Of a DNA stretch of 64,000 nucleotides, positions 2,435 through 63,224 are shown piece after piece. The stretch covers positions 36,425 through 100,424 of IMG/VR virus record IMGVR_UViG_3300046474_000274; one strand, given 5' to 3'. A program made the translations under genes and the position numbers. Source of the DNA: a virus (taxonomy: Duplodnaviria > Heunggongvirae > Uroviricota > Caudoviricetes). Every line of letters starts with the position of its first letter. Positions within the stretch are counted from its first letter, which is position 1. The notes under the pieces are model-generated. The model did not search any database. It worked only from the letters and a program-made list of their open reading frames with translations, and had not been told where the DNA came from.

Positions 2435-2507
2435 GCCAAATCCCTGCATTCCCGTGCTCGTCTCGCTATAAGTGAGCAGTAAACACAAACAGCAAGTCGG
2501 GCACGCA

Positions 2508-3053
2508 ATGAAGGTTATCTCAATCTGGCAGCCCTTCGCCTCGTTAGCGGTGAAGGGCTTCAAATGTTTCGAAACACGCACCTGGCCTGCACCGGCTTCG
2601 ATTATTGGTCAAACTATTGGTATCGCGTCCACCAAGGGTCTGAAGCCGGTCCAGCGCGAATATTTCGAGGATGAGCGGTTCGCCGGATTCTACGCCTCGA
2701 CCGGAATGCCTCCTCTGGAAGAACTACCCTGCGGCTATCTGCTCGGCACCGTCACGATCGACGAATGCCTTGTCATGAGCGAGGAGTTCATGGACGAGGT
2801 ATCTGATGAGGAGAAGGCATACGGTCATTGGGAGCGGGGCAATTTTGCCTGGCGCCTGGCTGATCTAAACCCGCTCGAGCATCCGATCCCCATCCGCGGC
2901 GCCCAGGGCATATACGACTGGAACGGAGTTCTCCCCAATGGTAGCGAAGCGCAAGTTTCCCCGCCCGCCGCAGCGCAAGTTCTCGAAGGCGAACGTGAAG
3001 TGGGTGGTGAAGCGCAAGGCCAGGACCATCGGCGCGGTCTACGAATTGTCTGA
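2508..3053 (+). CDS. ASCH (PUA-like) domain protein; 3' end uncertain, the coding signal switches frame at about 2938
   Basis: ORF track 2472..3053; MKVISIWQPFASLAVKGFKCFETRTW is ASCH-like; GC3 falls after 2937 in this frame. Confidence 0.55.
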   Translation: MKVISIWQPFASLAVKGFKCFETRTWPAPASIIGQTIGIASTKGLKPVQREYFEDERFAGFYASTGMPPLEELPCGYLLGTVTIDECLVMSEEFMDEVSDEEKAYGHWERGNFAWRLADLNPLEHPIPIRGAQGIYDWNGVLPNGSEAQVSPPAAAQVLEGEREVGGEAQGQDHRRGLRIV

Positions 3054-3375
3054 TGGCAGCCTTGCCTACCTCGCCCGTCGCTGGCGCGGTGAAATCTTCT
3101 GCTGCGGAGAGGCCAATATCTCCGCAGCGATGGCCCTTAACAAGGAAGAATGGGCCTTCGACCATGACCATCTCCTCGAATTTCGCTTGAAGAAGGTGAA
3201 ATACGTCGGCGTCATCGAGCGCGAACGGGGCGGCATGATCTACCTCACGACGCTCGACGCCTGCATGGATCCGACGATCTATAAGTTCCGCAATTACGAG
3301 GCGCGGGGCGGTGCCATGCAGCACTACGTCAACCATCGGCATTTCATCAAGCTCGCCGGCAAGACGACCTTCTGA
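2938..3375 (+). CDS. hypothetical basic protein; overlaps the ASCH ORF by 116 nt in the +1 frame
   Basis: ORF track 2938..3375; very high GC3 from 2938 onward; GGAG 9 nt upstream of the ATG. Confidence 0.55.
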   Translation: MVAKRKFPRPPQRKFSKANVKWVVKRKARTIGAVYELSDGSLAYLARRWRGEIFCCGEANISAAMALNKEEWAFDHDHLLEFRLKKVKYVGVIERERGGMIYLTTLDACMDPTIYKFRNYEARGGAMQHYVNHRHFIKLAGKTTF

Positions 3376-3384
3376 ATCCGCTCG

Positions 3385-3447
3385 GAACCTGACGCGCTCC
3401 CATGCGCGTATCGCTATAAGTGACGATGTAAGTAAGAGATTACTTAG
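3385..3447 (+). promoter_or_regulatory. early promoter/operator cassette: hairpin GACGCGC..GCGCGT, then TCGCTATAAG, then palindrome TAAGTAAGagatTACTTAG, 12 nt before the sbcD ATG
   Basis: Member of a family of about 20 copies. Confidence 0.7.
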
Positions 3448-3459
3448 AAAGGAATTCAC

Positions 3460-4554
3460 ATGAAGTTCGCCGTTCTCGCTGACATTCACGCTTATGGCTC
3501 GACCGTCTATTCCGGCACCGGAGTTGATGGCATCAACACGCGCCTCTCGCTCATCCTCAGCGAACTGCAGCGGGCGGCTCTGACGCTACAGGCGCAGGGC
3601 GGCAACCTCATGTTCATCGCCGGTGATATCTTTCACACGCGCGGCTCGATCGACCCGGAAGTGTTGAACCCGCTCCGGGCGACGATCGAGGAGATCCTCA
3701 ACATGGGGATCGACATTCACGCGATCCCCGGCAACCACGATCTCAAGAGCAAGGACAGCCGGGCGCTGTCCTCGCAGATCGAGAACCTGGCCCAGATCTC
3801 CATCGCCGGTGGCATGTTCAAGTGCTACAACGAGGTCACATCCTTCCAGGTCGAGGGCGAGTGGTTCGGCTTCGTGCCGTGGCGCGCGTCCAACAAGGAT
3901 CTTCTCGAAGATCTCGGCGACCTGTCGGCGCATCCCAATCATGCCGAGATGCACGTCTTCATCCACGCAGGCATCGACGGCGTTCTCTCGGGTATGCCGG
4001 CGCATGGTCTGACCGATGGCGACCTCGCGGCGTTTGGCTTCAAGCGCGTCTACGCCGGCCACTACCACAACCATGTGATCTTCCCCGGCGACAAGGTCGT
4101 GTCGATCGGTGCGACCACCCATCACAATTGGGGTGACGTTGGCACCCGTGCCGGCTTCCTGATGGTCGAGACCGACGCCGACACGGTTTCCTTCCACGAC
4201 ACCCGCGCGCCGAAGTTCGCCGACCTGTCCGGCCTGGACGAGCTGGAAATGGAGCTCGAGTGCCGGGGCAACTATGTCCGCTTCCGCGGCCCGACCATGA
4301 CCCAGGCGGAAATCAACGAGCTCCGCGACCAGTTCCGCAAGTGGGGCGCTCTCGGCGTGTCGATCGAGGTGCCGAAGGCAACGGTCGCAACCCGCGCGGC
4401 CACCGCGACCACGAAGGGCGTCACGCTCGATCAGTCCGTCGCCAATTTTGTCGACGCGAAGAAGGACATTCCGGCGTCGATCGACCGGGCGGCCCTCAAG
4501 AAGCGCGCCCAGGAAGTCCTCGATAAGTCCCGCACGGTCTTTGAAGAAGCCTGA
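3460..4554 (+). CDS. sbcD: SbcD/Mre11-family nuclease (calcineurin-like phosphoesterase)
   Basis: ORF track; motifs LADIHAYGS, FIAGDIFH and IPGNHD; promoter cassette immediately upstream. Confidence 0.85.
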   Translation: MKFAVLADIHAYGSTVYSGTGVDGINTRLSLILSELQRAALTLQAQGGNLMFIAGDIFHTRGSIDPEVLNPLRATIEEILNMGIDIHAIPGNHDLKSKDSRALSSQIENLAQISIAGGMFKCYNEVTSFQVEGEWFGFVPWRASNKDLLEDLGDLSAHPNHAEMHVFIHAGIDGVLSGMPAHGLTDGDLAAFGFKRVYAGHYHNHVIFPGDKVVSIGATTHHNWGDVGTRAGFLMVETDADTVSFHDTRAPKFADLSGLDELEMELECRGNYVRFRGPTMTQAEINELRDQFRKWGALGVSIEVPKATVATRAATATTKGVTLDQSVANFVDAKKDIPASIDRAALKKRAQEVLDKSRTVFEEA

Positions 4555-7774: not shown

Positions 7775-7806
7775 GCGCTATAACGTAAGTAAGCACTTAA
7801 TTAGAA
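7775..7806 (+). promoter_or_regulatory. promoter cassette copy (GCGCTATAACGTAAGTAAGCACTTAATTAG)
   Basis: Family member. Confidence 0.6.
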
Positions 7807-8905: not shown

Positions 8906-8926
8906 AGTAAGTAATTACTTACTTAA
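8906..8926 (+). promoter_or_regulatory. promoter palindrome copy (TAGTAAGTAATTACTTACTTA) before nrdB
   Basis: Family member. Confidence 0.55.
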
Positions 8927-11925: not shown

Positions 11926-11962
11926 GCGCTATAAGTTAAGTAAGCACTTACTTTAAATAGGA
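11926..11962 (+). promoter_or_regulatory. promoter cassette copy (GCGCTATAAGTTAAGTAAGCACTTACTTT) before thyX
   Basis: Family member. Confidence 0.65.
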
Positions 11963-13919: not shown

Positions 13920-14540
13920 ATGCTGTTCGGCATCACCGGCGCGGCCGGCACGGGAAAGACCACGCTCGCGAAGCGTGTCGCGGAAGACCTGGGCATTACC
14001 TACTTGTCTGGTTCGATCACTGAAATCGCAAAGCGCCACGGGTTTGATCCTGTGGCGCCAATGAGCCTGCAGGATCGCATCCGGCTGCAGTTCAAGCTTC
14101 TGGAAGACCATGTGTCTATGGTCGCCAAGGCAGAACGGCCGCTGATTGTCGATCGCACCCCGATTGATCTCGTTGGCTACATGCTCGCTGAAATCGACAT
14201 GCACAGCCATATGCGGCTCACCTCGGAAGAGATCGTCGCGATCGAGGAATACGTCGATCTTTGCCTCGAAACCACGGCGAAGCTCTACGACTACATCTTC
14301 ATCCTCGGCCAGCTTGATCATTACGAGGTCAAGGAAAGCCGCCCGGCCGACAACCGCGCCTACCAGACGCACACCCAGCTCATCATGCAGGGCTGCATGT
14401 CGCGGATCTACGGTCGGGTCAACTTCACGATCATCCGTCAGCAGGATCTCGAGGCGCGCCACGAGCTCGTCTTTGATACCGTGGTGAAACGGATGGACGA
14501 TATCTCGCGGGAACGGTCGAGCTCGGCTCACATTCACTGA
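13920..14540 (+). CDS. P-loop nucleotide/nucleoside kinase-like protein
   Basis: In frame with ORF 13836..14540; Walker A GITGAAGTGKTT; sits in the thyX/dut neighbourhood. Confidence 0.6.
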   Translation: MLFGITGAAGTGKTTLAKRVAEDLGITYLSGSITEIAKRHGFDPVAPMSLQDRIRLQFKLLEDHVSMVAKAERPLIVDRTPIDLVGYMLAEIDMHSHMRLTSEEIVAIEEYVDLCLETTAKLYDYIFILGQLDHYEVKESRPADNRAYQTHTQLIMQGCMSRIYGRVNFTIIRQQDLEARHELVFDTVVKRMDDISRERSSSAHIH

Positions 14541-14569
14541 ATTCTTCCCGCGCATAACCTGATGCGCTC

Positions 14570-14618
14570 CAACGAGCGCATCGCTATAAGTGAAAATGTA
14601 AGTAAGCACATACTGACA
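14570..14618 (+). promoter_or_regulatory. promoter cassette copy (hairpin GATGCGCT..AGCGCATC, then TCGCTATAAG, then TAAGTAAGCAC)
   Basis: Family member. Confidence 0.6.
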
Positions 14619-15266: not shown

Positions 15267-15340
15267 GCCGGGGTAGCTTAGGGCAGAGCAGCGACTTTCA
15301 GAGGTCGCAGGTCGAGGTTCGACTCCTTGCCCCGGAGCCA
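15267..15340 (+). tRNA. atypical tRNA-like gene: cloverleaf with a G1:A72 mismatch and an 8-nt anticodon loop UUUCAGAG (UCA if read as a 7-nt loop)
   Basis: T-arm CGAGG-TTCGACT-CCTTG; acceptor GCCGGGG/CCCCGGA with encoded CCA; D-arm TAGCTTAGGGCAGAGC; anticodon stem GCGAC/GTCGC. Confidence 0.45.
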
Positions 15341-16055: not shown

Positions 16056-16118
16056 GCTCATCACCTACCGCACTCCGCGACGTGATGCGCTAAAACATCA
16101 TAAGTAAGTGATTACTTA
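16056..16118 (+). promoter_or_regulatory. composite element GCTCATCACCTACCGCACTCC...GCGCTAAAACATCATAAGTAAGTGATTACTTAG before the GHKL ATPase gene
   Basis: Carries both the CATCACC element and the TAAGTAAG palindrome. Confidence 0.6.
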
Positions 16119-20084: not shown

Positions 20085-20143
20085 GCGCGCAATGTGATGT
20101 CATCCGTCGCATTGCGCGCTATAAACTAAGTAAGCACTTACTT
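20085..20143 (+). promoter_or_regulatory. promoter cassette copy (10-bp hairpin GCGCGCAATG..CATTGCGCGC, then GCGCTATAAACTAAGTAAGCACTTACTTTT)
   Basis: Family member. Confidence 0.65.
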
Positions 20144-20160
20144 TTAACGGAGCATTTACT

Positions 20161-20349: not shown

Positions 20350-21039
20350 ATGCCCCTGATCGTTCACAAGCACACCGAAATCATGAGCCCGACGCCGGCT
20401 CCCGTCACGCGCGGCCAGTATATGCACTCCGCAAACGGCCGGAAGATCTATCCGTTCGACCCGCGTCCGGAGGAAATCAACATCGGCGTCGTCGCCCATC
20501 ACCTGGCGACCAACAATCGCTGGAATGGCGCCACGCAGCACAAGCGGTTCAGGACTCGGATCTCGTATTCGGTCGCGGAGCACTCGGTCTACTGCGCCCG
20601 CTACATTCGCGAGGTATTGCAGCGGCCGGACCTCGAACTTGAGGCGCTGCTCCACGACGGGCCGGAATACATCACCGGCGACCTGATCCGGCCGCTCAAG
20701 CATTCGCCGCAGATCCACCCGATCTATTCCCAGGTCGAGGATAAGATCGAGCAGGCGTTCGCCAAGCGTTTCGGATTGCTCTATCCGCTCCCGAAGGAAG
20801 TGAAGATGGCTGACGAAGCCGTCTGCGCCGCGGAGTCGATCCAGATCGTGCCGAAGGATCCCTGCGAAGAATGGCAGTCGGGCAAGATGCACGACGACAG
20901 CAAGGTAGCTCCTTACGAAATTCAGATGCTGGATGCCTTCCCCGCGAAGGAATTCTTCCTGATGGAATATGAAGACGCCATTCGTCGCCGGCCGAATTAC
21001 GCTGATCTCCCGTCTTCTGTTGAGCTATATTCTAAGTAA
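20350..21039 (+). CDS. HD-domain phosphohydrolase (YfbR-like 5'-deoxynucleotidase family)
   Basis: ORF track; H...HD...D pattern (VAHHLA and LLHDGPEYITGD). Confidence 0.75.
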   Translation: MPLIVHKHTEIMSPTPAPVTRGQYMHSANGRKIYPFDPRPEEINIGVVAHHLATNNRWNGATQHKRFRTRISYSVAEHSVYCARYIREVLQRPDLELEALLHDGPEYITGDLIRPLKHSPQIHPIYSQVEDKIEQAFAKRFGLLYPLPKEVKMADEAVCAAESIQIVPKDPCEEWQSGKMHDDSKVAPYEIQMLDAFPAKEFFLMEYEDAIRRRPNYADLPSSVELYSK

Positions 21040-21051
21040 TCAATTACTTAG
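21024..21051 (+). promoter_or_regulatory. promoter cassette copy (GCTATATTCTAAGTAATCAATTACTTAG)
   Basis: Family member. Confidence 0.55.
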
Positions 21052-23888: not shown

Positions 23889-23919
23889 AGCGCTATAAGC
23901 TAAGTAAGAGATTACTTAG
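23889..23919 (+). promoter_or_regulatory. promoter cassette copy (AGCGCTATAAGCTAAGTAAGAGATTACTTAG)
   Basis: Family member. Confidence 0.65.
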
Positions 23920-28478: not shown

Positions 28479-28483
28479 TCCCC

Positions 28484-28556
28484 TACATGGGAGCGCTCAT
28501 CACCTGGGCGCTCCCAATCTCGTTTGCGCTATAAGATAAGTAAGCAATTACTTTAG
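28484..28556 (+). promoter_or_regulatory. hairpin GGGAGCGC-tcatcacctg-GGCGCTCCC followed by GCGCTATAAGATAAGTAAGCAATTACTTTAG
   Basis: Family member. Confidence 0.65.
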
Positions 28557-31278: not shown

Positions 31279-31305
31279 CAGCGATATAAGTAACTCATTA
31301 CTTAG
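31279..31305 (+). promoter_or_regulatory. promoter cassette copy (CAGCGATATAAGTAACTCATTACTTAG)
   Basis: Family member. Confidence 0.55.
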
Positions 31306-35704: not shown

Positions 35705-35962
35705 ATGGCAATGAACGTGACCAATCGACAGCGGCTGGAATTTGCAGCCGCTGGGTTCCTCGCCGAGATGCGCAAGCAATGGGCCAAGCTCCACCCCGAG
35801 GATCCCTGCCCCATTAAGAACCTCGCCGACTATCCCGAGAAGGAGCGGTCGGCGCTGATGGCTGGTGTCCAGAAGGCCGTGCAATACGCCGGCCCCGACA
35901 CCGACAACGCCTTCGCGGCCTGGATCGCGAAGCGGGAAGAAGTCAGTCCGCACACGACCTGA
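35705..35962 (+). CDS. hypothetical protein
   Basis: ORF track 35702..35962. Confidence 0.5.
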   Translation: MAMNVTNRQRLEFAAAGFLAEMRKQWAKLHPEDPCPIKNLADYPEKERSALMAGVQKAVQYAGPDTDNAFAAWIAKREEVSPHTT

Positions 35963-35980
35963 TGCGCTCCCAATGTCGTT

Positions 35981-36011
35981 TGCGCTATAAAGTAAGTAAG
36001 CAATTACTTAG
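35981..36011 (+). promoter_or_regulatory. promoter cassette copy (GCGCTATAAAGTAAGTAAGCAATTACTTAG)
   Basis: Family member. Confidence 0.65.
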
Positions 36012-37599: not shown

Positions 37600-37668
37600 T
37601 GAGCTGCGCTCGTTACCGAGCGCACTCCTACACGTTTTGCGCTATAAGCTAAGTAAGAGCTTACTTAT
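37600..37668 (+). promoter_or_regulatory. hairpin TGCGCTCG..CGAGCGCA followed by GCGCTATAAGCTAAGTAAGAGCTTACTTAT
   Basis: Family member. Confidence 0.65.
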
Positions 37669-41957: not shown

Positions 41958-41981
41958 GAATAAGTAAGTGTTTACTTACCT
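41958..41981. promoter_or_regulatory. palindrome-only copy GGAATAAGTAAGTGTTTACTTACC lying between divergent genes (minus-strand Zn-ribbon gene and +strand tail fibre gene)
   Basis: Symmetric core, so it may act in both directions. Confidence 0.5.
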
Positions 41982-42028: not shown

Positions 42029-43876
42029 ATGAAGATCTTCGCCAAGGGCACCATGCTCGGCAATCCGCTGCTGTCGAGCGAAGTCGTAATTCCCGTCTAC
42101 CTCGCCCCGACGATGCCTCCCTCTTATACCCAGCGGTCGGGCGCGGACGAGAAGTGGGGCTTCCTGGATTCCATGGTGACCGAGGCCGGCGCCGCGGTGA
42201 ATTCGACCATTGGCCGCGTCCTGGTGACCAACGCACCCTCGCCCAACGCGCTCTACATCATGACCGGCGAGACGAACGGCCTCGCGATCGTGCCTGACAC
42301 CGGCATGATCTACGTGACGAACGGCTCGCTGCTGACGGTCGGTATTCGCACCATCACCGTCACCGCGGTCAATCTCGCCGGCTTCGCCAGCACGACCATC
42401 CGCATTGCGGTCGTGGGCACGGCGACCAACGTCATCTACATCGACCCGACGGCCGGCGATGACAGCAACACCGGCATCAAGCCCTCGCAGGCGATCAAGA
42501 CCTGGGCGGCCCGCACGTCCAAGGGCTCGGGCACGAAGACCTACGCCGTTCGCCGCGGCACCGCGCTCGATGCTGCCATGGTTCTCGCCAACAATGAAAC
42601 CGTCCGCTGCTATGGCGACCCTGCCCTGCCCGCACCGAAGATCAGCACCACGTCCGCTTTTGGGCTCACCGGCACCGATCTAGCCGGCGCAACCGTCCAG
42701 GACATCGAAATCTCGGCCGGCCAGCGCGCCGTTCACATCAACCGCGGCACGAATTTCAAGGCTTTCCGCTGCGTGTTCCGCGTCCCGACCGACGGCACCA
42801 ACCGCGCCCCCTTCTACACGACCCAGGTCACGGGTCTGAGGTTCAGGCACAATTGGGTGCCGGCGAGCTCCTATGGTGACAATGTGTATTGCCGCGGCCT
42901 GAAGAACGCCGAGCTCGCCTATAATCTACTGGAAACGCCGCTGGGCAGCACCTCGGACAATATGCAGATCACCTCGGAGCGCAACGTCCTCTACCCGTGC
43001 GCCGATGTCTGGATCCATCACAACACGATGGTCAACGTGGGCGGCACGTCCGCCAAGGGCAACTGCGTCATCGAGGGCTGCCTGCGGGCGCTGGTCGAAA
43101 ACAACGATTTCAGCGGTCTCTATTTCTGCGTATCCTCAGTGTCGACTTTCAACACCATCCGCAACAACCGGATGAGCAAGGCGACCTACAGCTCCAACTC
43201 CTTCACCATGGGCATCGGCTCGACCTACGACACTGGCGACCAGTCTTGGTATGATAATCGCCTGTCTGGGCCGGGCAACCGCGCCTTCTCGATCTCCGGC
43301 ACCGGCGAGGCTGCTGGTGCTCCGCTGTGGTCGCGCTACGACCTTGAGATTAACGACAACATCGGCGAAGGGCACACGACCTTCTTCCACCAGAACCGCC
43401 TGATGTCCGGCTACTTCCAGTATAACGTCGGACAGAGCAACGTCTCCAATACGGTCTCGGGTGTGGCGACGGTTGCGACGGGTGGCGATTACACGACCCG
43501 CACGGTCACGCCGAACTTCCTTAACACCGCAGATGGGCCGATCTGCATGGAACGGGCCAGGATCTCAGGGACGGTCCAGAATGGGCAGACCGTGACGGTC
43601 AGCGCGCCCTCCTTCACCGGCGCCGTGTCGGTTGAATATCAGTGGCGCCTGAACGGCAAGTATATCGCCGGCGAGACGGGCCAGAGCTTCACGATCCCGG
43701 CAGGCTACAGCGGCCAGGTCTCCGATCGGGTGCCGACCTTTGCCACGACCGGCTTTCCTGGTGGAGCTGCCGGCGAGCTGTCGTGCATCACCCGTGGCAT
43801 CGATGCAGCGGGCAATGTGATGATCGCCCCTGCCCTGTTTGCCAACGACGAAGCCTATATGCCGATCGCTGCATAA
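42029..43876 (+). CDS. tail fibre / tailspike-like protein with right-handed beta-helix (pectin-lyase-like) repeats
   Basis: In frame with ORF 41774..43876; repeated hydrophobic-N-N/G beta-helix signatures (IHHNTMVNVGG, NNDFSG). Confidence 0.7.
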   Translation: MKIFAKGTMLGNPLLSSEVVIPVYLAPTMPPSYTQRSGADEKWGFLDSMVTEAGAAVNSTIGRVLVTNAPSPNALYIMTGETNGLAIVPDTGMIYVTNGSLLTVGIRTITVTAVNLAGFASTTIRIAVVGTATNVIYIDPTAGDDSNTGIKPSQAIKTWAARTSKGSGTKTYAVRRGTALDAAMVLANNETVRCYGDPALPAPKISTTSAFGLTGTDLAGATVQDIEISAGQRAVHINRGTNFKAFRCVFRVPTDGTNRAPFYTTQVTGLRFRHNWVPASSYGDNVYCRGLKNAELAYNLLETPLGSTSDNMQITSERNVLYPCADVWIHHNTMVNVGGTSAKGNCVIEGCLRALVENNDFSGLYFCVSSVSTFNTIRNNRMSKATYSSNSFTMGIGSTYDTGDQSWYDNRLSGPGNRAFSISGTGEAAGAPLWSRYDLEINDNIGEGHTTFFHQNRLMSGYFQYNVGQSNVSNTVSGVATVATGGDYTTRTVTPNFLNTADGPICMERARISGTVQNGQTVTVSAPSFTGAVSVEYQWRLNGKYIAGETGQSFTIPAGYSGQVSDRVPTFATTGFPGGAAGELSCITRGIDAAGNVMIAPALFANDEAYMPIAA

Positions 43877-43882
43877 GCCGCT

Positions 43883-43920
43883 CGCATCCTGCCGCACTCC
43901 AACGCGAATACAGCTAAAAC
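43883..43920 (+). promoter_or_regulatory. CATCCTGCCGCACTCCAACGCG...GCTAAAAC element, copy 1 of two in the 520-nt ORF-free region
   Basis: Second motif family. Confidence 0.5.
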
Positions 43921-44327: not shown

Positions 44328-44383
44328 GCTCATAACCTACCGCGCCCCGAGAGCTCGGTTGCTAAAACTGAACGCAGCAATGA
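44328..44383 (+). promoter_or_regulatory. CATAACCTACCGCGCCCC...GCTAAAAC element immediately upstream of the AAA ATPase gene
   Basis: Second motif family. Confidence 0.55.
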
Positions 44384-47667: not shown

Positions 47668-47696
47668 CTAAAAGTAAGTAAGTATTTACTTATATT
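47668..47696 (+). promoter_or_regulatory. palindrome copy CTAAAAGTAAGTAAGTATTTACTTATATT
   Basis: Family member. Confidence 0.5.
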
Positions 47697-51300: not shown

Positions 51301-51952
51301 CAGCGGCAGCCGTGTGCCCGGCCAGGTTCTCTCCGGCCCCGACAGCATCTTCGACACGGCAGCGGTGCTTGCGGCCTTCCCGACCGCGGTCATCACTCGC
51401 TCCTACCAGTGGCGCCGGCACAAGCCTGCTGTCCAGTGGGCAAACTGGACCGGCGTGCACCTGGGCTGGCTGTGCGAGTGGATCGAGGGCGCTACCTCGT
51501 CCAGCTACACCGTCACCGACGCCGAACAGGGCTGCCGCGTCAGCCGCGTCGATCGCATTCACCTGACCTTCACCGAGGCTGGTGTTACGAAGACCATCAC
51601 GGCGCTGGCCTACGATGCGACCTATTCGACCTCGAGCGAGGTGCCGCGCACGGGTGATCTTGCCATCGCCCTGCCGGCGATGCCGACCACGGGTAACATC
51701 TCTGCGGCGTCCGCTGAAGGCGCCGTGGTTGTGGACCTGCCGGCACTGCTTAACGGTGAGACGCGCACGCTGCTGCACCCCAGCCGCGGCTATGACCCCT
51801 ACACCGGCACGGCAATCACCCTCGACGCCAACGGTGACCTGGTTCGTGGCGCTGGCGTTCTGACGGCCGGTAATACGGTCAGCTTCAAGATCCGGCAGAA
51901 GCGCGGCGTCGACGTGATCGACACCTCGGCCTCTTTGACGGTCGTTGCGTAG
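48335..51952 (+). CDS. large tail fibre / host-specificity protein (1205 aa) with Ig-like N-terminal repeats and a C-terminal beta-helix depolymerase-like domain
   Basis: ORF track; GGAGACC RBS; beta-helix signatures (DNILDGNNFVHG, RRVQLLQVMSDGFY). Confidence 0.8.
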   Translation: MADRRFIDQMLTASPETVATGNLIIEANGQEYRATTAVLGGVHLFFLDEDNRTPVVQFRLTSPGRTVENVPVTLTATAPNGTVVTKSATTDALGNGSFDYTGILARGQTYTIEARAAIYLTATTQKTINALSAPIDPVTATSTGKVGDTITVNALNFDGSPTGYRYRYLRGTSYVIPGAEGPIYTLQADDDADIITAQVQATNAGGDSSWYPANGIGPVSNKTSALLASPVISGSTAPGSRLTVTSPGAASENAVVKSDEWQINQAKIQALKAPLTRYLGGAAAGSAPTAYPDGANHHGVGLSSSAYSGSNTYSFSVNTSATENDYIPVLVGAAGGNEGAQVYDLFIRHLNTNSSIRIKMFAAKYRGGALVEEAQMTKVGATAGQELAEWATVANSTPHWTLTHDFGEWLEGDYLVFRQQARNISGSGANSYQWDARAGISYATLPIGNVQDLQKTLSVFTTRADMAGKNVRLARTFSNRNNDVVAYSNEISMAAAVAQTQAPANTTLPTIVAASARSNTTWQIDLGAWSNQPTGYGVQWRADGVDIAGATLMSYKPTSAQEGQTITCAVIPTNGVGAGIAAVSPGVVVQSAAAYWNIATGNDLNDGLTAEFAKQNLTGTDTIPSGATAILNGDFGTRLKVGSGRFYEGLGAALTSIGSTSTAYAIDHYTDDGSLGRSNVTVRKMRITSGDRAIMARQGSNWVIEDVVIDSAGFNPVGSAENASGIYFYRNNGITLRRVQLLQVMSDGFYSDTNDKITVEDCLFMPVYTAEGDTIQTRADRNDSNGAPGPHQKGFLMRGTFLDMHSRKTASGKGCLVTNMHDYILIRDNILDGNNFVHGTDEGDNQVFCRNVSRYSRKNTYSFGYGIGGYDNQPSSHNHQLYDNSWYDMNRALSFTGISVTGYTGTKSGRVDIVAHDETVIKCANGVRIDRPTSGRFRGFVFHNVSKPLDRTLTTLPVGGDIQAFFWSDHFIYNGSIAEPPKVFARAQISGSRVPGQVLSGPDSIFDTAAVLAAFPTAVITRSYQWRRHKPAVQWANWTGVHLGWLCEWIEGATSSSYTVTDAEQGCRVSRVDRIHLTFTEAGVTKTITALAYDATYSTSSEVPRTGDLAIALPAMPTTGNISAASAEGAVVVDLPALLNGETRTLLHPSRGYDPYTGTAITLDANGDLVRGAGVLTAGNTVSFKIRQKRGVDVIDTSASLTVVA

Positions 51953-51967
51953 CTACATAGCTATATA

Positions 51968-52004
51968 GCTCCATAGCTGTTTGCGCGGCTATGGAGCCTT
52001 TTCG
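51968..52004 (+). terminator. terminator after the 1205-aa fibre gene (GCTCCATAGC..GCTATGGAGC then CTTTTCG)
   Basis: 10-bp stem plus short T-run; embedded in a TAGCTA array. Confidence 0.65.
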
Positions 52005-53357: not shown

Positions 53358-54590
53358 TAGGTTGCACCACAACCTTTACATACAACCTTCCACATGACAA
53401 GGTTTGTCAGGTCTAGGCCCGGCCAGGCCATTAAAACAGGTATTCGGCCAGCCCAAAACGTAAAGGTCAGGCAAGGCTAAAACCCACCTTCTCTGGGACC
53501 AACCTTGACAGAGTTTTACCTTTTCTTGACAAAAACACCCGAAATCGCAAATTTCGGCAATCTGTCAAGTTAAGCAACAGCTAATCCTCGATCTCGAAAA
53601 CAGACATAGAGACTCGCTGACGCGATCCCTGACATAGAGATGAGTCACAGAGCGTCAGACACGACCCTCGCACTCACAGACGAGATATGAGCGAACCCTG
53701 GAAGCTCGGGCACCAAAGGGTCAAAACATATTCGAGCATCACGACACCCATAGAGAGGGAGACACATAGACGGGTAGCTAGATGGCTATAGAGCTAGGTG
53801 TGACCATAGAGAGGTGACGTGCGTATAGAGGGAGACAGTGCGTCGGGGTGTGCCTGGGGTGAGTGCCTGCGTGTGGAGAGGGTGCGTAGGGTAATCGTCG
53901 AGAGGAGGTAGTAGGCCGCGCCGCGGTTTCCCACGGTCGCACACGGACACCCATCACCTCCCGCCCCAGACCACGCCAATCCACGGAGACGCACGGCGCC
54001 CGACCCCTCGCCTGCCCTGATTGCACTCCATGCTGCCCTGAGCTAAACGTCAATCATCGAATTCGAGCGCTGTCACCCGGAGCGCTCTTGAGCGGAGCAG
54101 TCATGCTCCCGCTTTCTTCGTAGTTGCTGATCTCGCCGTCGGGTGCGAGCGAGACACCTAATAGGCGCGTCTGGTCCGAAATGGCCGGCGCGCCTTCTTT
54201 TTGGCATTTCGGGGAACGGGGCGCATCTGCCTCACCGGAGAGTAGGAGCCCTCACCCATGGACTGCCGTGGAGATCCGCGGATCTCATCACCGGAACCTT
54301 CATTCCCGTCCGCACACCGTCTATACCTTACACCTAATGACAAAGGTATAAGGTATATAATATTTACGATGAACGGACGGGAATGAAGGTTCCGGCATTT
54401 CGTTTCGCCGCGGCTATCCGTGGAGTTCCGTGGGTGTGACCAGTATAGGCAAAGGCTTACCTGCGGGCCGTGGCTCCCGCCCGTGTATTGCCCTCTGCCG
54501 CCCCGTCCCTCACCACTACTACCCCTAGAATTCTCTCTGTATTGTCTAATCATCGAAAGCGATAAAGCTTCGATCTAAACAGCAACACAG
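53358..54590. repeat. 1.2-kb ORF-free region: nested palindrome CTTGACA..CGAAAT-CGC-AAATTTCG..TGTCAAG, seven (C/T)ATAGAG(A/G) iterons, a purine/G-run-rich tract, palindrome GAGATCCGCGGATCTC, and a 20-bp-arm inverted repeat GGAACCTTCATTCCCGTCCG..CGGACGGGAATGAAGGTTCC around an AT-rich core; origin or terminus candidate
   Basis: No ORF with coding GC3; repeats read directly from the sequence. Confidence 0.6.
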
Positions 54591-56433: not shown

Positions 56434-56991
56434 TCGAACGAACCGCAGCGATGACCGCAGCTCTCATGGGCTGCGGTTGTTTCTGGGCTCGGTCATAGGG
56501 CACGGGCATGGGAGAAGGGGTTTTGGGGAACGGCTTAGGATACAGGGATCCGGCGTCTGGCTGAGGCGGGCTAGGGCACGGACCCCAGGGGCGCGGGGTA
56601 GGGGTCCGCCGAACCCTTGTGACGGGTTCGGCTTTAGGCGTGCCCTGCCCCTTCCGCCTGCCCAAACGAAAGCCCCGGTCCTTGGGAGACCGAGGCTATC
56701 CGTGGATGTGGCTAGGTAGCTATATGGCTATCGAGGTCAAGCCCAGCCGCGGGCTTGCGAACCGGTTGCGATGATGAGGGTCCGGGTGATAATCAAGAGC
56801 CCGTGGCGAGACCAGGTGAACCGTGGGGAGTAGCAAGGGTTCGAGCGGATAAGCATGGTCTGGGCTCCGTGGGGATTTGGGGAACGGGGTGGCTCACCCC
56901 TATGGGTGGTCAGGGGACGCGGCAGGGAGGCGCCGGGCGTCAAGCTAATGTAGCGAGCGCTTATGTAGCGCTCGCTCTTATTAGTGCTTGC

Positions 56992-57588
56992 TTATGCAGC
57001 TATCTCGTCTTCGCTGCTTTCGTCTTCGATTTCGACCTTCGCGGTGTCGAGCTTGAACGCGTCAGCGAGAGCTTGCGCCAGTGACGTGAGGTTGACGGTG
57101 TAAGCGTTTCTCATGTCTGCGCGAGCTTCGATGATGTTCAGCGTCAGGAGCGCGTCTCTGCTCGTCTGTGACTGCGCGGCGATCGTTTCAGGCGTCTGAA
57201 TGATCGCACGACGGTAGACGAGGTGCGTCAAGCTGTCATCGACAGTTAAGTCTCTGCTAATAGACGCTTCGATCATTGCTTGCGTCAGCGGAGCGTCATT
57301 ACGGTAGCAGAGGAGCGCGGTGCGGAAGATCGCATAGGTGTTTTCGTTAAGGTCTTTGGCATTGAGAGCGACGGCTTGAGAAGCGAACTTGACGACTTTC
57401 TCACATGCATAGATGGCGCGTGAGAGACGGTCGGGATCGACGGATGCTTCGGCGAGCATATCGGCGAGCTTTTCGTTAGCGAGCATGGTGGCGAGCTTGC
57501 GCATCTTCTTTTCGTTAGAAGCGGAGCAGTCATTCGTCAGAGCGATGGAGAGACGAGCGACGATTGCAGAGTGATATTCATTAGACAT
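56992..57588 (-). CDS. hypothetical protein on the minus strand inside a lower-GC island
   Basis: ORF track; codon usage is AT-richer than the rest of the window. Confidence 0.6.
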   Translation of the reverse strand: MSNEYHSAIVARLSIALTNDCSASNEKKMRKLATMLANEKLADMLAEASVDPDRLSRAIYACEKVVKFASQAVALNAKDLNENTYAIFRTALLCYRNDAPLTQAMIEASISRDLTVDDSLTHLVYRRAIIQTPETIAAQSQTSRDALLTLNIIEARADMRNAYTVNLTSLAQALADAFKLDTAKVEIEDESSEDEIAA

Positions 57589-57861
57589 TGCTTGGACTTT
57601 CTTCGTTAGCGTTATGAGCGTTGCTTAGCTCGACTTCGAAGCGGTGCTTATTTGCTTGTTTCGCTTCGATGATTTGACTTTATCGAAGTCTTAGATTGGT
57701 TCAAGCGAGCTGATGGGGATGCCTTCTGCGGCCCAGAGATCCGGTGATCGGAACCTCCCATACCTGGCCACGTAGCTATCTAGCCAGGTCCGTTCTCTCC
57801 ACTTCTCCACCCCGGCCGCAGTTACCCCGGTGCCCTATCCTCCTCTGCCATAGCCAGGCAG

Positions 57862-57903
57862 CCAAATAGCCATCTAGCTAGATGTAAGTAAGTGTTTACT
57901 TAT
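57862..57903 (+). promoter_or_regulatory. TAGCTA array followed by the TAAGTAAGTGTTTACTTA palindrome just upstream of the tRNA-Met/Trp pair
   Basis: Carries both motif classes. Confidence 0.5.
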
Positions 57904-57937
57904 CTCTCCAAGGATGCTAGGGATTTCCTATCGTTGA

Positions 57938-58014
57938 CGCGGGATAGCTCAGTTGGTCAGAGCGCTGGACTCATAATCCAGAGGTCGTCGGTTCAAGTCC
58001 GACTCCCGCAACCA
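57938..58014 (+). tRNA. tRNA-Met(CAU) with an initiator-like C1:A72 mismatch; ends ...CCCGCAACCA as in E. coli tRNA-fMet
   Basis: D-arm TAGCTCAGTTGGTCAGAGC; anticodon arm CTGGA-CTCATAA-TCCAG; T-arm GTCGG-TTCAAGT-CCGAC; CCA encoded. Confidence 0.85.
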
Positions 58015-58029
58015 GCCTCCTCGTCGCAA

Positions 58030-58105
58030 GGGTGTGTAGCTCAATGGATCAGAGCAGCGGTCTCCAAAACCAAAGACCAGGGTTCGATTCCCTGCTCACC
58101 CGCCA
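58030..58105 (+). tRNA. tRNA-Trp(CCA)-like; anticodon loop CTCCAAA as in E. coli tRNA-Trp but the anticodon stem has two mismatches
   Basis: Acceptor GGGTGTG/CTCACCC (one mismatch); D-arm TAGCTCAATGGATCAGAGC; T-arm CAGGG-TTCGATT-CCCTG; CCA encoded. Confidence 0.6.
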
Positions 58106-58128
58106 ACTCTAACGTGGTTCGTTGCCTT

Positions 58129-58524
58129 ATGCCCTCTCCCTACAAGAACGCCGTCTGCCGCGGCTCCATCTTCCTCAACACCGGCTGCGGTCATTGCGAG
58201 CGCTGCAAGGAAGAACAGGCACGCATCGCCGAGAAGTCCGATACTCATGAAGCTGAAAAGCTGGATAGCCATGTAGCTACACAGGTCGCTGGCCTGCCGG
58301 TCGCGGGCTACAAGAAGACCCAGCCGCCTCACCTCATCGCGCTCGTCAACGAGAACAAGGTTCTCGAGGAGAAGATCCTTCGCCAGATCGACCTGCACGT
58401 CCAGCGCGGCGCCGAACTCGACCAGCGCTCGGTGCAGATGGCCCGTGGATTGATCGAGGATGCCTTCATGCGGCTCAACCGCGGCGTCTTCCAGCCGCAG
58501 CGCCTCGATGGTGACCTCGAATGA
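58129..58524 (+). CDS. Zn-finger hypothetical protein (CRGSIFLNTGCGHCERC)
   Basis: C-terminal part of ORF 57892..58524; the N-terminal part of that ORF runs across the two tRNA genes and is spurious. Confidence 0.5.
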   Translation: MPSPYKNAVCRGSIFLNTGCGHCERCKEEQARIAEKSDTHEAEKLDSHVATQVAGLPVAGYKKTQPPHLIALVNENKVLEEKILRQIDLHVQRGAELDQRSVQMARGLIEDAFMRLNRGVFQPQRLDGDLE

Positions 58525-59318: not shown

Positions 59319-59567
59319 CTATTTAGCTTTTTCCTTCTCGACACGCTCCCAGGTCGCGAAGCACTCGATCAGCAGATCCTTCATGTCCATACCGCGCGAG
59401 ACCGCGGTCATTTTGAATCGGGTGTGCCAGTCGCGCGGCATGTTGAAGGTCATGCCGACCAACTTCTCACCCTTCATGTTATTGGCCGCCTCGACCGGCT
59501 TTGTCTGCTCGGGCAGGAAGGCGGTCTTCTTCGGGGGAGGGGCTACCTTGGCACGGCTCTCTATCAT
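59319..59567 (-). CDS. parG: ParG-like ribbon-helix-helix centromere-binding protein
   Basis: ORF track; ...MPRDWHTRFKMTAVSRGMDMKDLLIECF fits the ParG RHH region (HTRFK); ATGA overlap with parA. Confidence 0.65.
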   Translation of the reverse strand: MIESRAKVAPPPKKTAFLPEQTKPVEAANNMKGEKLVGMTFNMPRDWHTRFKMTAVSRGMDMKDLLIECFATWERVEKEKAK

Positions 59568-60217
59568 GCGGCTTCTCCAATAGCGCTGGCGCGATCGACA
59601 ATCTCGGCTGCGAGCAGGTCTGCAACTTCTTCCAGCTTACCCACATGCTTCTCGACCTCAGATAAGGCGTAGCCGTGGTTTTGTGCGCGCTGGTATGAAA
59701 TCTTGGCCGCGATCTCCTGGCGAGCGACATAGAAGCCGGTCGCCGTGGTCAGGTAATCGCGGGCCGCGTTGACCGCGGACTTGCTCTCGGTGATCTTGTT
59801 GAGGACGAAGACGATCCGCTCCTTCGGCACGCCCTTGGCGATGAGCTCCATACCAAAGGCAAGCTGCGGCTCCAGGTCGTCGAGCGGCAGCCCGGTCGGG
59901 ATGACGACCAGGTCCGAGAGGAGGGCGATGTCGAGTGAGGATTGATCGGAGTCCGGTCTGCCGTCGGCAACGACCAGATTGTAGTCCTCGCGGCGCATGG
60001 CTGTCGGCTGGACGAAGGGTGCTGCGTCGATGACGGGCTCGAGGCCGGCCTGCTTGCGGATCTCGGCCCATTTGACCGAGGTGAGCTGCTTCGTGTTGAA
60101 GTCCGCGATCTTCACGGTCCATTGGGCCGTGGCGTATGTTCTGGCAATCAGACGGGCGAGGGTGGACTTGCCAACCCCGCCCTTCTGGGACAGGCATGCG
60201 ATGATCAGGTCAGCCAT
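59564..60217 (-). CDS. parA: ParA/ParF-type partition ATPase
   Basis: ORF track; deviant Walker A LSQKGGVGKST; 217 aa. Confidence 0.85.
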   Translation of the reverse strand: MADLIIACLSQKGGVGKSTLARLIARTYATAQWTVKIADFNTKQLTSVKWAEIRKQAGLEPVIDAAPFVQPTAMRREDYNLVVADGRPDSDQSSLDIALLSDLVVIPTGLPLDDLEPQLAFGMELIAKGVPKERIVFVLNKITESKSAVNAARDYLTTATGFYVARQEIAAKISYQRAQNHGYALSEVEKHVGKLEEVADLLAAEIVDRASAIGEAA

Positions 60218-60285
60218 ATGTCTATGTCCCTATGTAGCTATCTAAGTGGATAGCTACAGGGCTACCTGATTCAGGTTAATGGAGT

Positions 60286-61308: not shown

Positions 61309-61340
61309 CTAAGTAAGTGCTTACTTACTTATAGCGAGAC
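61309..61340 (-). promoter_or_regulatory. promoter cassette in minus orientation (reads CTCGCTATAAGTAAGTAAGCACTTACTTAG on the minus strand) upstream of the minus-strand dNMP kinase operon
   Basis: Its orientation follows gene orientation. Confidence 0.65.
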
Positions 61341-61382
61341 AGCGGGAGCGCTGCATATTTAGCTAGGCAGCTAGATAGCTAT

Positions 61383-61571
61383 TCAGCCAGAAATGACAGG
61401 TTCGGCTTCGTCCTCGCCGGCGAGCACAGCCAGGCGCATTGCGAGCGAGCGGCAGCGCCGCTCAAGCTCGTCGTTTTCGTCCCGCAGCCGCTGCAGCTCG
61501 GCGTGCAGGTGATCAGCAGATAAAATCGAGTGGCCGCGCTCGTTGAAGAAATGGATCGGATTGATCAGCAT
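61383..61571 (-). CDS. possible small protein
   Basis: ORF track; start overlaps the helicase stop. Confidence 0.35.
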   Translation of the reverse strand: MLINPIHFFNERGHSILSADHLHAELQRLRDENDELERRCRSLAMRLAVLAGEDEAEPVISG

Positions 61572-63145
61572 CAGGCGGCTGCCTTCCTCTCGAAGACTTC
61601 CCAGGGGAAGTTCTGGTTAGCGGCCAAGATCCCCTCAACGAAGCCCGGCGTCTGGCGCACGATGTTCTCGCGCTTGCGAGCGTGGTCGCGCAGGGTGCCA
61701 TTGAGATTGATCGAATAGTCCGCGATGAACGTGATGTTCGGTCCCTTCTTCTTATAGCGCAGACCGCGCCCGATGCGCTGACGAAGTTCGACTTCCGCCT
61801 TCATCCCGCCACCCAACTGCACCAGGCCGATCGCCGGGCAGTCGACGCCGACATCGAGGATCTTGGTGCCGATGATGAAATCGATGACGCCGGCAGCCAG
61901 GTCCGCGAGCTTTGCCTTGCGCACCTTCTGATCGTCGTCGCCGCGCAGGAAGACGCCCTTGAGCCCATGACGCTTGTAGAGCGCCAGGAGATTGTCGCCG
62001 GCCTCGGTGCGGGCAACCAGCGTCAGCACCGGCAGGCCATAGAGCTGTGCCATGCGCGCGTCCCGCAGCATCGCGGCATGCATAGGGGAGGTGTCCTTGA
62101 CGTAGCCCAGCGTATAGGCGCGCTCGAAGGGCGAGGACTTGTGCAGGCCCTTCGGCGCCTCGCAGTCGATGAACTTGAAATAGGGCTTGGCGAGAATGCC
62201 GCGCTCGATCAGCAACGACTCCGGAATGTCGATCAGGATCGGGCCGAAGGCAGCCATCAAACGCATGTTGTCGGCTGCCGAGTCCTTCATGAAGGGCGTA
62301 GCCGTCAGCGCCACACGGATCGTCGCGTTCTTGCAGTGGCGCAGGATCTCGTAATAGGCCGTGCCACCCGCCTCATGGGCTTCCTCGCCGATGACGACCT
62401 CGACAAGCTCGAGGAACTTCTTGATCGCTTCCCGGCGCTTGGTCTTCCTGTCGAACTTCGCCTGGGCGAGCTTTAAAATGTCGTCGCGGGACATGTTCGC
62501 GTCCTTGTTCTTCGACAGGTGCTGCGACTTCACGATCGCGCGGATCTCGGCGTTGATATCCGGCTCTTCGAGCGCCTGGATCAGCGTCTGGACCATGCCG
62601 AGGTTGACGCCCCGCACAAAGCGCAGCTCGCCATCACCGATCTGCCCGGTGTTGAGCCCGATCTCCTTGAGCTGGTCGTCCATCTGATAGAGCAGGATCC
62701 CGCGCGTGGTCAGGAACAGGGTCATGCGCCGGAAGCGGGCCGCGATCAGCTTGGCGATCTTCGACTTGCCACCGCCCGTCGCTACACGAATGATGCCGGC
62801 GCCATGCTTCTCGACCTGGCGCAGCGCCTTCATCTGGTAGTCGTAGCGCGGATCATCATTGCCGAACTCATCCACGATCGGGTTTTCGGGGCCGAGCGGC
62901 GTGGCGTGCGGCCGGGCGACCTCGTAGACGGTGTGGCCGATCTTCTCGAGCTCCGACTTGACGAGATAGGCAAAGCCAGCCGGGAAGCTGTTCCTGGTGA
63001 CGGAAAAGAAGCTCGACGTGCCGGAGAAGCCGAGACCGCCTTCAACCTGGTAGGAGAGCAGGTTGGTGACGAAAGCCTTGACCTCCTTGGGCGGGTCGCG
63101 GAGCTGGGCGACGACTGCATTGCGGGCGATCGTGACGACGGCCAT
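61571..63145 (-). CDS. SF2 DEAD/DEAH-box DNA helicase
   Basis: ORF track; Walker A ATGGGKS; DExH box IGEEAHEAGG; helicase C-terminal motifs. Confidence 0.85.
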   Translation of the reverse strand: MAVVTIARNAVVAQLRDPPKEVKAFVTNLLSYQVEGGLGFSGTSSFFSVTRNSFPAGFAYLVKSELEKIGHTVYEVARPHATPLGPENPIVDEFGNDDPRYDYQMKALRQVEKHGAGIIRVATGGGKSKIAKLIAARFRRMTLFLTTRGILLYQMDDQLKEIGLNTGQIGDGELRFVRGVNLGMVQTLIQALEEPDINAEIRAIVKSQHLSKNKDANMSRDDILKLAQAKFDRKTKRREAIKKFLELVEVVIGEEAHEAGGTAYYEILRHCKNATIRVALTATPFMKDSAADNMRLMAAFGPILIDIPESLLIERGILAKPYFKFIDCEAPKGLHKSSPFERAYTLGYVKDTSPMHAAMLRDARMAQLYGLPVLTLVARTEAGDNLLALYKRHGLKGVFLRGDDDQKVRKAKLADLAAGVIDFIIGTKILDVGVDCPAIGLVQLGGGMKAEVELRQRIGRGLRYKKKGPNITFIADYSINLNGTLRDHARKRENIVRQTPGFVEGILAANQNFPWEVFERKAAA

Positions 63146-63186
63146 TATTGTTCCTTCAAAACTTGCCTATTGCGTTCTCAACCAGA

Positions 63187-63214
63187 TATAGTAAGTAATC
63201 ACTTACTTATTCGG
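63187..63214 (+). promoter_or_regulatory. promoter cassette copy (ATATAGTAAGTAATCACTTACTTATTCGG) before the ParB-like gene
   Basis: Family member. Confidence 0.6.
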
Positions 63215-63224
63215 AACCATCCAT

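Follow-up and report, generated by a model that had tools for sequence, protein, structure and literature searches.

What does a short DNA element do when it recurs about 20 times in one phage genome, mostly just ahead of a gene? The question is raised by a 64-kb stretch of DNA (IMG/VR record IMGVR_UViG_3300046474_000274, positions 36,425 to 100,424), here called the window, in which an initial annotation had described a single strict cassette built of a GC-rich hairpin, a −10-like CTATAAG and an inverted repeat, followed by a ribosome binding site (RBS) and a start codon. The window has a GC content of ~60% and makes up roughly half of a siphophage genome of the B1VFA / V1VFA-S / RHph_X66 group, with which it shares ~80% nucleotide identity across 66-71% of the stretches queried. 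Near-identical contigs of 102 and 119.5 kb are held in metagenomes, and the plasmids pRlX6 and pLM21S1 are of the same lineage, which has been characterised as phage-plasmid-like (PMC12509600; PMC4447125). No account of the repeat was found in the literature searched for the motif sequence and the related phages, and the regulatory circuitry of the rhizobial phage-plasmids B1VFA, V1VFA-S, RHph_X66, pRlX6, pLM21S1 and RHEph10 is undescribed, with no repressor gene recognisable in them. We find that the cassette is two separate, independent DNA modules that often lie side by side, a phage-specific promoter and an 18-bp palindrome. We propose, with a probability of roughly 0.6, that the palindromes form a network of repressor operators and that a ParG-like partition protein is their likely binder.

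Two separable modules make up the cassette

The window contains 18 copies of an 18-bp palindrome, TAAGTAA-N4-TTACTTA, the majority of which read TAAGTAAG-NN-CTTACTTA. Seventeen copies have no more than one mismatch, whereas 0.00 were expected from 100 shuffles, and CGCTATAAG occurs 10 times against an expectation of 0.13. Each of the 18 end points listed in the initial annotation carries the palindrome, and the spacer, which had been thought to vary from 2 to 5 nt, is invariably 4 nt with 7-bp arms or, equivalently, 2 nt with 8-bp arms. All 18 palindromes are intergenic, the copy at 21033 overlapping the stop codon of the gene upstream. Promoter, palindrome, RBS and start codon follow one another in that order at 13 sites (palindrome starts 3429, 7786, 11937, 14599, 16101, 20127, 21033, 23901, 28537, 31287, 35993, 37650 and 61310), and the sole minus-strand copy (61310) heads a minus-strand operon, as expected of a set of transcription signals whose orientation tracks that of the genes. 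The copy at 57885 precedes tRNA-Met and not a start codon.

The two modules also occur apart. Five palindromes stand without a phage-type promoter (8908, 41961, 47675, 57885 and 63192) and eight promoters stand without a palindrome (−10 positions 2465, 4575, 22967, 26828, 39649, 43913, 44361 and 46309), and therefore the modules are separable. One further promoter, at 35312, carries a different dyad, TTTCGTAACGAAA plus GCGCTATATGCGC, in place of the usual palindrome. We conclude that the three parts do not form an obligatory cassette.

A phage-type promoter with a host-like −10 element

The conserved upstream part of the cassette is a linear motif consisting of box A (CCGCTCAtcACCT, at about −50), box B (GCgCTCCcA, at about −30), ~N10 and GCTATAA. 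Box B lies 10 nt upstream of GCTA(T/A)AA in 15 of 19 sites, and the promoter class occurs at least 22 times in the window, GCTA(T/A)AA being present at 22 sites. Plus-strand members lie at 3365..3419 (box A, box B CTCCCA and GCTATAA), 14535..14589, 28480..28534 (near-consensus, GCGCTCATCACCTGGGCGCTCCCA-N11-GCTATAA) and 35936..35990, and a minus-strand member lies at 61329..61383. The promoter at 43865..43919 on the plus strand, which reads GCCGCTCGCATCCTGCCGCACTCCAA-N10-GCTAAAA, is one of those that lack the palindrome.

The consensus of rhizobial housekeeping promoters is CTTGAC-N17-CTATAT, with CTATAT as the −10 element. GCTATAA resembles this −10, a −10-like element being present at all 22 sites and the earlier reading of CTATAAG holds. 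A canonical −35 element (TTGACA or CTTGAC, 16-18 nt upstream) is absent from the cassette promoters, the region being occupied by box B, and a scan with the canonical sigma70 consensus recovered none of them, returning two matches elsewhere where 5.6 were expected. B1VFA_132 and RHEph10 gp045, sigma-family proteins of ~212 amino acids whose gene lies outside the window, match only Sigma70_r2 in Pfam. The promoter probably depends on host core RNA polymerase together with the phage's own small sigma factor, and the simplest reading is of a phage sigma factor that would recognise the −10 in a host-like way and have an upstream specificity of its own. Alternatively, host sigma70 could act with a phage activator that binds at box B, much like MotA of T4. 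We define the motif as a phage-specific promoter class, usable for annotating transcription units across hundreds of related contigs.

Three of the palindrome-free promoters (22967, 43913 and 46309) have in common a different downstream motif, CT(T/A)AATCATCA, which hints at a subclass of promoters under separate regulation.

The GC-rich hairpin, described earlier as a shared terminator-like part, was inconstant. Folding was better than that of dinucleotide shuffles (z < −2) at 6 of 22 promoter sites, and stem positions and geometries differed among them. The promoter at 3365..3419 is one of the six, an 8-10 bp hairpin surrounds box B at 14535..14589 (z = −3.9), and the hairpin at 35936..35990 was not significant (z = −0.4). 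A terminator scan covering 20-40 kb found 18 sites where 15.9 were expected, so that terminator-like sites were not enriched, and the only cassette that it flagged was 28488-28516. Moreover, no T/U tract was found right after the stems, which in the cassettes are followed by GCTATAAG. The apparent dyads arise largely from two conserved boxes that contain GCGC. We reject the hairpin as a terminator or an N4-like hairpin promoter.

Positions of the palindrome relative to promoters

Every window site has an orthologous site in B1VFA (18/18), at ~80% overall nucleotide identity, and at these sites the arms are intact and the central 4 nt diverge freely. At the promoters of the window, the palindrome begins 0-9 nt past the −10 element, mostly 1-2 nt past GCTATAA. 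The 2-nt spacing is found at 7786..7803 (one mismatch; B1VFA 114793), 11937..11954, 20127..20144 (B1VFA 4535), 23901..23918 (B1VFA 8858), 28537..28554 (B1VFA 13374), 35993..36010 (B1VFA 20052) and 37650..37667 (a perfect 8+2+8 dyad; B1VFA 21724), as well as past GCTATAT at 21033..21050 (B1VFA 6135). Upstream of the promoter belonging to the 11937 copy lies a true terminator, GTGGCGCttcgGCGCCAC plus a T run. The minus-strand copy at 61310..61327 (B1VFA 47835) begins 1 nt past GCTATAA and heads an operon that ends with the genes for ParA and the ParG-like protein. Wider spacings occur at 3429..3446 (TAAGTAAGAGATTACTTA, 9 nt past GCTATAA and 13 nt before the ATG at 3460; B1VFA 110015), at 14599..14616 (a degenerate copy with two mismatches, 9 nt past GCTATAA; B1VFA 121644) and at 16101..16118 (5 nt past GCTAAAA, upstream of a rIIA-like gene at 16133; B1VFA 486), and the copy at 31287..31304 overlaps the −10 itself (GATATAAGTAA; B1VFA 16121).

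The five copies without box B and GCTATAA are found in other surroundings. The copy at 8908..8925 (B1VFA 115902) lies upstream of the gene for the ribonucleotide reductase beta subunit. Lone copies lie at 41961..41978 (B1VFA 26353), in a divergent intergenic region between the minus-strand open reading frame (ORF) 41615-41929 and a plus-strand tail-fibre-like gene, and at 47675..47692, the flanks of which are conserved with B1VFA 32839. The copy at 57885..57902 is 36 nt upstream of a tRNA-Met/tRNA-Trp cluster, and B1VFA 44256 is likewise upstream of tRNA-Met. Finally, the copy at 63192..63209 (B1VFA 49721) abuts the −10 TATAGT of a sigma70-like promoter (CTTGCC/TTGCCT, spacer 18-19 nt) that serves a gene for a ParB_N-domain protein, in a divergent region common to a helicase gene.

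The complete genome of B1VFA holds ~40 palindromes, genome-wide and including the structural/late region, all of them intergenic or overlapping stop codons. Besides those orthologous to window sites, copies lie on late/structural promoters, on the tRNA operon and on partition operons. Together with the many promoters of the same class that lack a palindrome, this distribution speaks against the earlier claim that the element defines an early/middle regulon.

In B1VFA and many IMG/VR relatives the palindrome is placed in three further registers, no less precise. In the first, it lies within the −35/−10 spacer of a sigma70-like promoter, as in GCTTGCAAc[TAAGTAAGCACTTACTTA]CAAT, which is TTGCAA-N17-TACAAT; sites of this type are at B1VFA 56339, 73107 and 60129. 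In RHEph10, the portal promoter TTGACG-N17-TACCAT also has the palindrome inside its spacer. In the second register the palindrome abuts the −10, as in TTGTCA-N18-TATTG[T...], the palindrome starting with the T in brackets. In the third, paired copies, typically 50-52 bp apart, bracket the promoter, the second copy being just upstream of the −35. Among 230 unique (non-identical) sites, compared with 20,000 control positions, the palindrome was inside the −35/−10 spacer at 34 (controls about 1%), abutted the −10 at 23 (controls 0.2%) and followed a phage-type promoter at 24 (controls 0.7%).

Two further structures lie close to palindromes in relatives. In late-gene leaders (L006 3331, L048 7286, L102 2083, B1VFA 59159 and 66348), a GC-rich hairpin comes right after a palindrome at +1, with compensatory changes between contigs (CTTCGTCC...GGACGAAG vs CTTCATCC...GGATGAAG); this hairpin may be a genuine RNA structure of the 5′ untranslated region (5′-UTR), distinct from the palindrome. 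A large covarying inverted repeat, e.g., CCCGTCCATTCACTGTC ... GACAATGAACGGACGGG, at B1VFA 54260-54410 and in L031, L044, L061, L075 and L020 encloses a palindrome just upstream of a small-terminase-like gene and may serve in packaging or late control. In the window, a similar word, TTCCCGTCCGTTCATCG, occurs near 54380-54400.

The palindrome as a probable DNA operator

The inverted repeat had been proposed to be either an operator or a stem-loop in the 5′-UTR. If it acted as RNA, it would be a shared 5′-leader or intercistronic stem-loop, UAAGUAA-N4-UUACUUA, that might stabilise mRNA, tune translation of the next gene or serve as an RNase processing site. The location of 13 of the 18 window sites 10-22 nt ahead of an RBS and start codon is in keeping with such a role, as is the 7-bp hairpin with a tetraloop that could form, several of the loops being GNRA-like (GAGA, GCAA and GTGA). 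The registers in relatives are not, as a palindrome located in a promoter spacer or upstream of the −35 cannot be in the transcript of that promoter, and many copies are so located; another copy lies ahead of a tRNA operon. Even in the window, where the palindrome is mostly 1-2 nt past GCTATAA, a start 6-8 nt past the −10 would fall inside the left arm. The wider −10-to-palindrome spacings favour RNA, in that a short 5′ hairpin could form if transcription started at the first bases of the palindrome, and spacings of 5-9 nt past GCTATAA could place the whole hairpin at the 5′ end of the transcript.

The pattern of conservation also bears on the choice. The sequence of the arms is conserved beyond what pairing would ask for, and the loop varies freely. 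G8 and C11 extend the dyad to 8+2+8, and in the RHEph10-type variant an AATATT centre likewise continues the dyad through the would-be loop; neither is of use to an RNA loop, which favours DNA. Mismatched pairs in imperfect copies showed no wobble bias (4 G·T, 4 A·C and 28 others), and when folded as RNA the stems were weak, nine of the ten tested lying between −2.3 and −5.5 kcal/mol. An Rfam search matched tRNAs only and left the palindrome unmatched. We consider a function as RNA improbable, and of the two proposed roles an operator, for a multimeric phage regulator, fits far better. Judged from sequence evidence, the palindrome is most likely a DNA operator of a phage-encoded protein.

Lineage variation of the palindrome is consistent with an operator that changes along with its binder. 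RHEph10, RHph_N1_10 and RHph_Y2_11 share the gene order, at ~75% nucleotide identity, and lack the TAAGTAA palindrome, an outcome that the initial annotation had named as evidence against a function. The exact motif is indeed missing, but a diverged palindrome, a dyad of the TCAGTCAATATTGACTGA type, is found at the equivalent positions, including the spacer of the portal promoter and dual sites flanking the capsid promoter, which argues for a co-evolving operator and not against function. The RHEph10 variant is a 9+9 dyad whose AATATT centre is conserved. Thus, two variants exist within Rhizobium phages, TAAGTAAG in B1VFA and the window and TCAGTCAAT in RHEph10, N1_10 and Y2_11.

Homologues of the ParB_N gene that adjoins the promoter with the palindrome at 63192 numbered 827, and loci around them were taken from 13 genomes and 80 viral contigs. 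These loci contained dyads of the same kind with lineage-specific boxes: GTAA in Rhizobium (window type), Sinorhizobium, Qipengyuania, Chelativorans and Paracoccus; GTCA in Methylocystis, Faunimonas and Chitinibacter; ATCA in Phyllobacterium, Roseospira and the RHEph10 group; and CTAA in one IMG/VR contig. Both arms change together between lineages, a change that would keep RNA pairing as well.

The same comparison bears on whether the binder belongs to the phage. A host global regulator or nucleoid protein might bind the element, or the element might be an AT-rich melting or recombination site that spreads promoter cassettes; promoter-stem-loop (PeSL) cassettes have reportedly been proposed to spread promoters between gene modules in T4-type phages. 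The palindrome is an AT-rich element in a genome of 60% GC, its many copies lie at gene boundaries, and phage-plasmids from different host genera, such as Rhizobium, Sinorhizobium and Qipengyuania, have it in identical form, all of which would fit such a reading. The existence of two variants in one host genus, however, argues for a phage-encoded binder and is hard to reconcile with a single host factor. Moreover, sites are kept at orthologous positions and not shuffled, and the precise registers with respect to −35 and −10 and the strict dyad favour a specific protein-DNA operator. A host factor or recombination element therefore seems very improbable.

Candidate binders of the palindrome

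The palindrome can be parsed as TAA-GTAA-NNNN-TTAC-TTA, i.e., as two inverted tetramer boxes 4 bp apart, at 18 of 18 sites, which is the geometry of ParG-type sites. In ParG, an 8-residue ribbon sets specificity, the tetramer boxes are direct or inverted and 4 bp apart, at least two dimers are needed for binding, and the operator is downstream of the −10 (PMC3413123; PMC3130281). The window encodes a ParG-like ribbon-helix-helix (RHH) protein of 82 amino acids with the ribbon VGMTFNMP (59319..59567, minus strand), downstream of the gene for its partner, a small ParA or type Ib partition ATPase (59564..60217, minus strand; weak CbiA match). The protein aligned with the RHH domain of TP228 ParG (hhalign, 93%), its best PDB match was 1p94, and its Pfam matches to ParG and RHH_10 were just under threshold.

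When gene families near the par locus were scanned without bias, the share of columns that distinguish the operator classes was largest in the ParG-like protein, and these columns were ribbon positions 2, 4 and 6. Ribbon residue 4 was T or S wherever the box was xTAA and N wherever it was xTCA, over ~20 lineages that are related to each other. We regard the ParG-like protein as the best candidate binder of the palindrome, a tentative assignment from sequence to which we give slightly less than even odds.

Several observations weigh against the assignment. Because the lineages are related, the covariation of ribbon and box is partly phylogenetic. Lineage L160 changes box position 1 (CTAA) with the ribbon unchanged, L168 and L170 combine a D-S-K ribbon with GTAA boxes, and L161 is ambiguous. 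In L138, L201 and L204, which bear the palindrome, no ParA/ParG-like gene was seen within 10 kb of the ParB_N gene; an IMG/VR scan with a ParG-like profile, aimed at lineages seemingly without the gene, returned 17 loci, mostly already known. ParG spacers are AT-rich, and the central 4 nt here often contain G or C in the window type but are AT-rich (AATATT) in the RHEph10 type. In pSM19035, activation of ParA takes more than two boxes (PMC9499535), and thus a partition role for the palindromes is unsupported. Finally, many lineages show a parallel switch between TAGCTA and TAGCGA in a second repeat, and this repeat could be what the ParG-like protein really binds.

The second repeat, (A/C)TAGCTA, often forms 8+2+8 dyads, e.g., GTAGCTATCcacttaGATAGCTAC directly upstream of parA, and occurs in the window at about 34086-34108, 44335-44360, 51952-51975, 56712-56735, 57850-57884, 60232-60262 and 61357-61395. 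Its counterparts elsewhere are TTTAGCGA-NN-TCGCTAAA in the RHEph10 type and CCTAGG in a Paracoccus relative. TAGCTA-type repeats probably serve another regulator or make up the centromere.

If the ParG-like protein bound TAGCTA/TAGCGA, the palindrome would be the operator of some other phage protein, either an unrecognised repressor or one of two ParB_N proteins with RHH-like C termini, acting like KorB. The inverted repeats of the TAGCTA type lie directly upstream of parA in most relatives, and their switch to TAGCGA takes place in the same lineages as the ribbon switch. Yet in Paracoccus and in L150, L163 and L160, ribbons with T or S go with xTAA palindromes, and TAGCTA is not enriched. A role for the ParB_N protein (63225..63965, plus strand) would be in line with the palindrome on its gene's own promoter (63192), with the palindrome-bearing relatives that show no ParA/ParG-like gene near the ParB_N gene, and with KorB, a member of the ParB family that represses genes plasmid-wide on RK2 by way of palindromic OB sites (PMC11790492). 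The putative DNA-reading strands of the ParB_N proteins, KTHxxMRFK and GFKRVTI, hardly vary, however, either among 120 homologues or between lineages whose operator boxes differ, and we therefore reject the 63225..63965 protein as a KorB-like determinant of specificity. As for an unrecognised repressor, no helix-turn-helix (HTH) or repressor family was detected among the genes of the window or near it. We consider a binder other than the ParG-like protein unlikely. Two adjacent proteins with a ParB_N domain, 63225-63965 and the product of the next gene (L121 10741-11400), have RHH-like C termini (KTHAVMRYKVP... and GFKRVTIEQS...).

Two other proteins had been put forward as regulators. The 514-amino-acid product of 18523-20067, described as an HTH protein, is a homologue of rIIB (PF26926; RHEph10 annotation) without a match to a DNA-binding or HTH family, and we reject it as a binder. 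The Zn-ribbon ORF 41615-41929 has no informative Pfam or PHROG match that would support a regulatory role, and such matches were also absent for ORF 56992-57588 (198 amino acids, minus strand) and the other small ORFs.

A possible genome-wide repression network

Returning to the palindrome as an operator, two phage-encoded protein dimers, probably of the RHH type, could bind the same face of the DNA at the two boxes. At window promoters the palindrome covers the presumed start point, and bound protein would block RNA polymerase there by occluding the −10 and +1; in the other registers it would occupy the spacer or bracket the promoter. Most promoters carry the operator: in the window those of the phage type, in relatives the sigma70-like ones of late, tRNA and partition genes. 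With ~40 sites per ~120-kb genome, on early-type, late, tRNA and partition promoters, the operators may constitute a master repression network that would keep the plasmid-prophage silent and confer superinfection immunity, and the eight palindrome-free promoters would escape repression. The operon that encodes ParA and the ParG-like protein bears an operator of its own (61310), which suggests autoregulation. Against such a scheme, phages of the B1VFA type were isolated as plaque formers; a lysogenic plasmid state is suggested by the plasmid relatives pLM21S1 (PMC4447125) and pRlX6 (PMC12509600).

A bolder proposal is that the ParG-like centromere-binding protein doubles as master repressor and immunity determinant through ~40 two-box operators in a large and little-studied family of ~100-120-kb phage-plasmids, which ranges over Alphaproteobacteria and includes at least one betaproteobacterial member. 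We hold this proposal to be doubtful. If it were true, one protein-DNA code would run both plasmid segregation and lysis-lysogeny control, and immunity or incompatibility groups would be set by the co-evolution of ribbon and box (T/S with xTAA, N with xTCA). Should the ParG-like protein be the binder, it would provide a case of an RHH partition protein as a genome-wide phage regulator and of natural switching of ribbon/box specificity. A single 18-bp code at ~40 promoters offers a directly testable handle on plasmid silence and on the divergence of immunity groups.

Other features of the window

Homologues of rIIA and rIIB (16133-20067), an RtcB RNA ligase (25367-26800) and a NadM/NadV pair for NAD salvage (28755-31246) probably function in counter-defence or auxiliary metabolism under the control of cassette promoters. 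Two anti-defence candidates are a protein with an Acb2/Tad1 hairpin domain at ~58129-58524 (E = 1.3e-9) and a Tad2-like protein just past the end of the window (L121 12495-12806). ORF 57892-58524 overlaps two tRNA genes, so that the real gene is its C-terminal part of 131 amino acids. A tRNA-like gene at 15267-15340 (Rfam tRNA, 45 bits) was given a four-base anticodon, tcag, by ARAGORN with no amino acid assigned, and could be a pseudo-tRNA or a tRNA of the frameshift-suppressor type. The region 33100-35400 is of low GC (0.565) and regulatory in appearance; it has an ORF with a Y4mA_C domain and, at 33720-33929 and 34947-35147, paralogous small minus-strand ORFs.

Comparison with known systems

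The closest likeness is to ParG of TP228. In TP228 as in the window, a small RHH gene directly follows a small parA gene, tetramer boxes are 4 bp apart, and the operator, putative in the window, is downstream of the −10 of its own operon (PMC3413123; PMC3130281). ParG homologues, moreover, recognise differing boxes (PMC3413123; PMC3130281). TP228 differs in that one array of at least eight boxes lies at the par locus (the OF operator and parH), whereas here isolated two-box sites lie at ~40 promoters. The box is ACTC with an AT-rich spacer in TP228 but GTAA here, where the spacer is not consistently AT-rich and the binder is putative. The omega protein of pSM19035 is likewise an RHH centromere-binding protein whose sites overlap promoters, those of copS, delta and omega, with two of its dimers occupying a pair of adjacent direct or inverted repeats (PMC9499535). 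Omega, however, has 7-10 contiguous 7-bp heptads at six sites, in contrast to two boxes per site and ~40 sites, including structural-gene promoters, in the phages considered here.

Plasmid RK2 carries 12 OB sites. KorB of RK2 resembles the putative binder in being a plasmid-wide repressor of a partition family with palindromic operators at varied promoter positions (PMC11790492). KorB is an HTH-containing ParB CTPase clamp, whereas here ParB_N proteins and palindrome show no covariation, and the half-site of OB is closer to the RHEph10-type TTTAGCGA-NN-TCGCTAAA than to the TAAGTAA palindrome.

Dispersed operators are also found in temperate phages. The C1 operators of P1, the conserved inverted repeats of phiC31 and the stoperators of L5 and Bxb1 each serve one repressor through ~17-35 dispersed short sites; those of phiC31 are associated with a phage-specific, non-canonical promoter class, and in cluster A mycobacteriophages repressor and site sequence evolve together. 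P1 and L5 have asymmetric sites, and the action of stoperators on elongation is confined to one orientation. The palindrome differs from these in being a strict dyad without the asymmetry of a stoperator. A further difference from temperate-phage systems is that no repressor gene of the CI, C1 or HTH type was detected here and that late, tRNA and partition promoters are covered. The inverted repeats of phage-plasmid N15 are dispersed among its regulatory regions. In N15, the partition protein SopB binds several separate inverted repeats, IR1-4 (PMC7205306). SopB is of the HTH type and has four sites, as opposed to ~40 sites and an RHH candidate here. We conclude that what sets the present system apart from known repressor networks is a strict two-box dyad, placed at ~40 sites on all classes of promoter where no classical repressor was detected, whose binder is likely an RHH partition protein.

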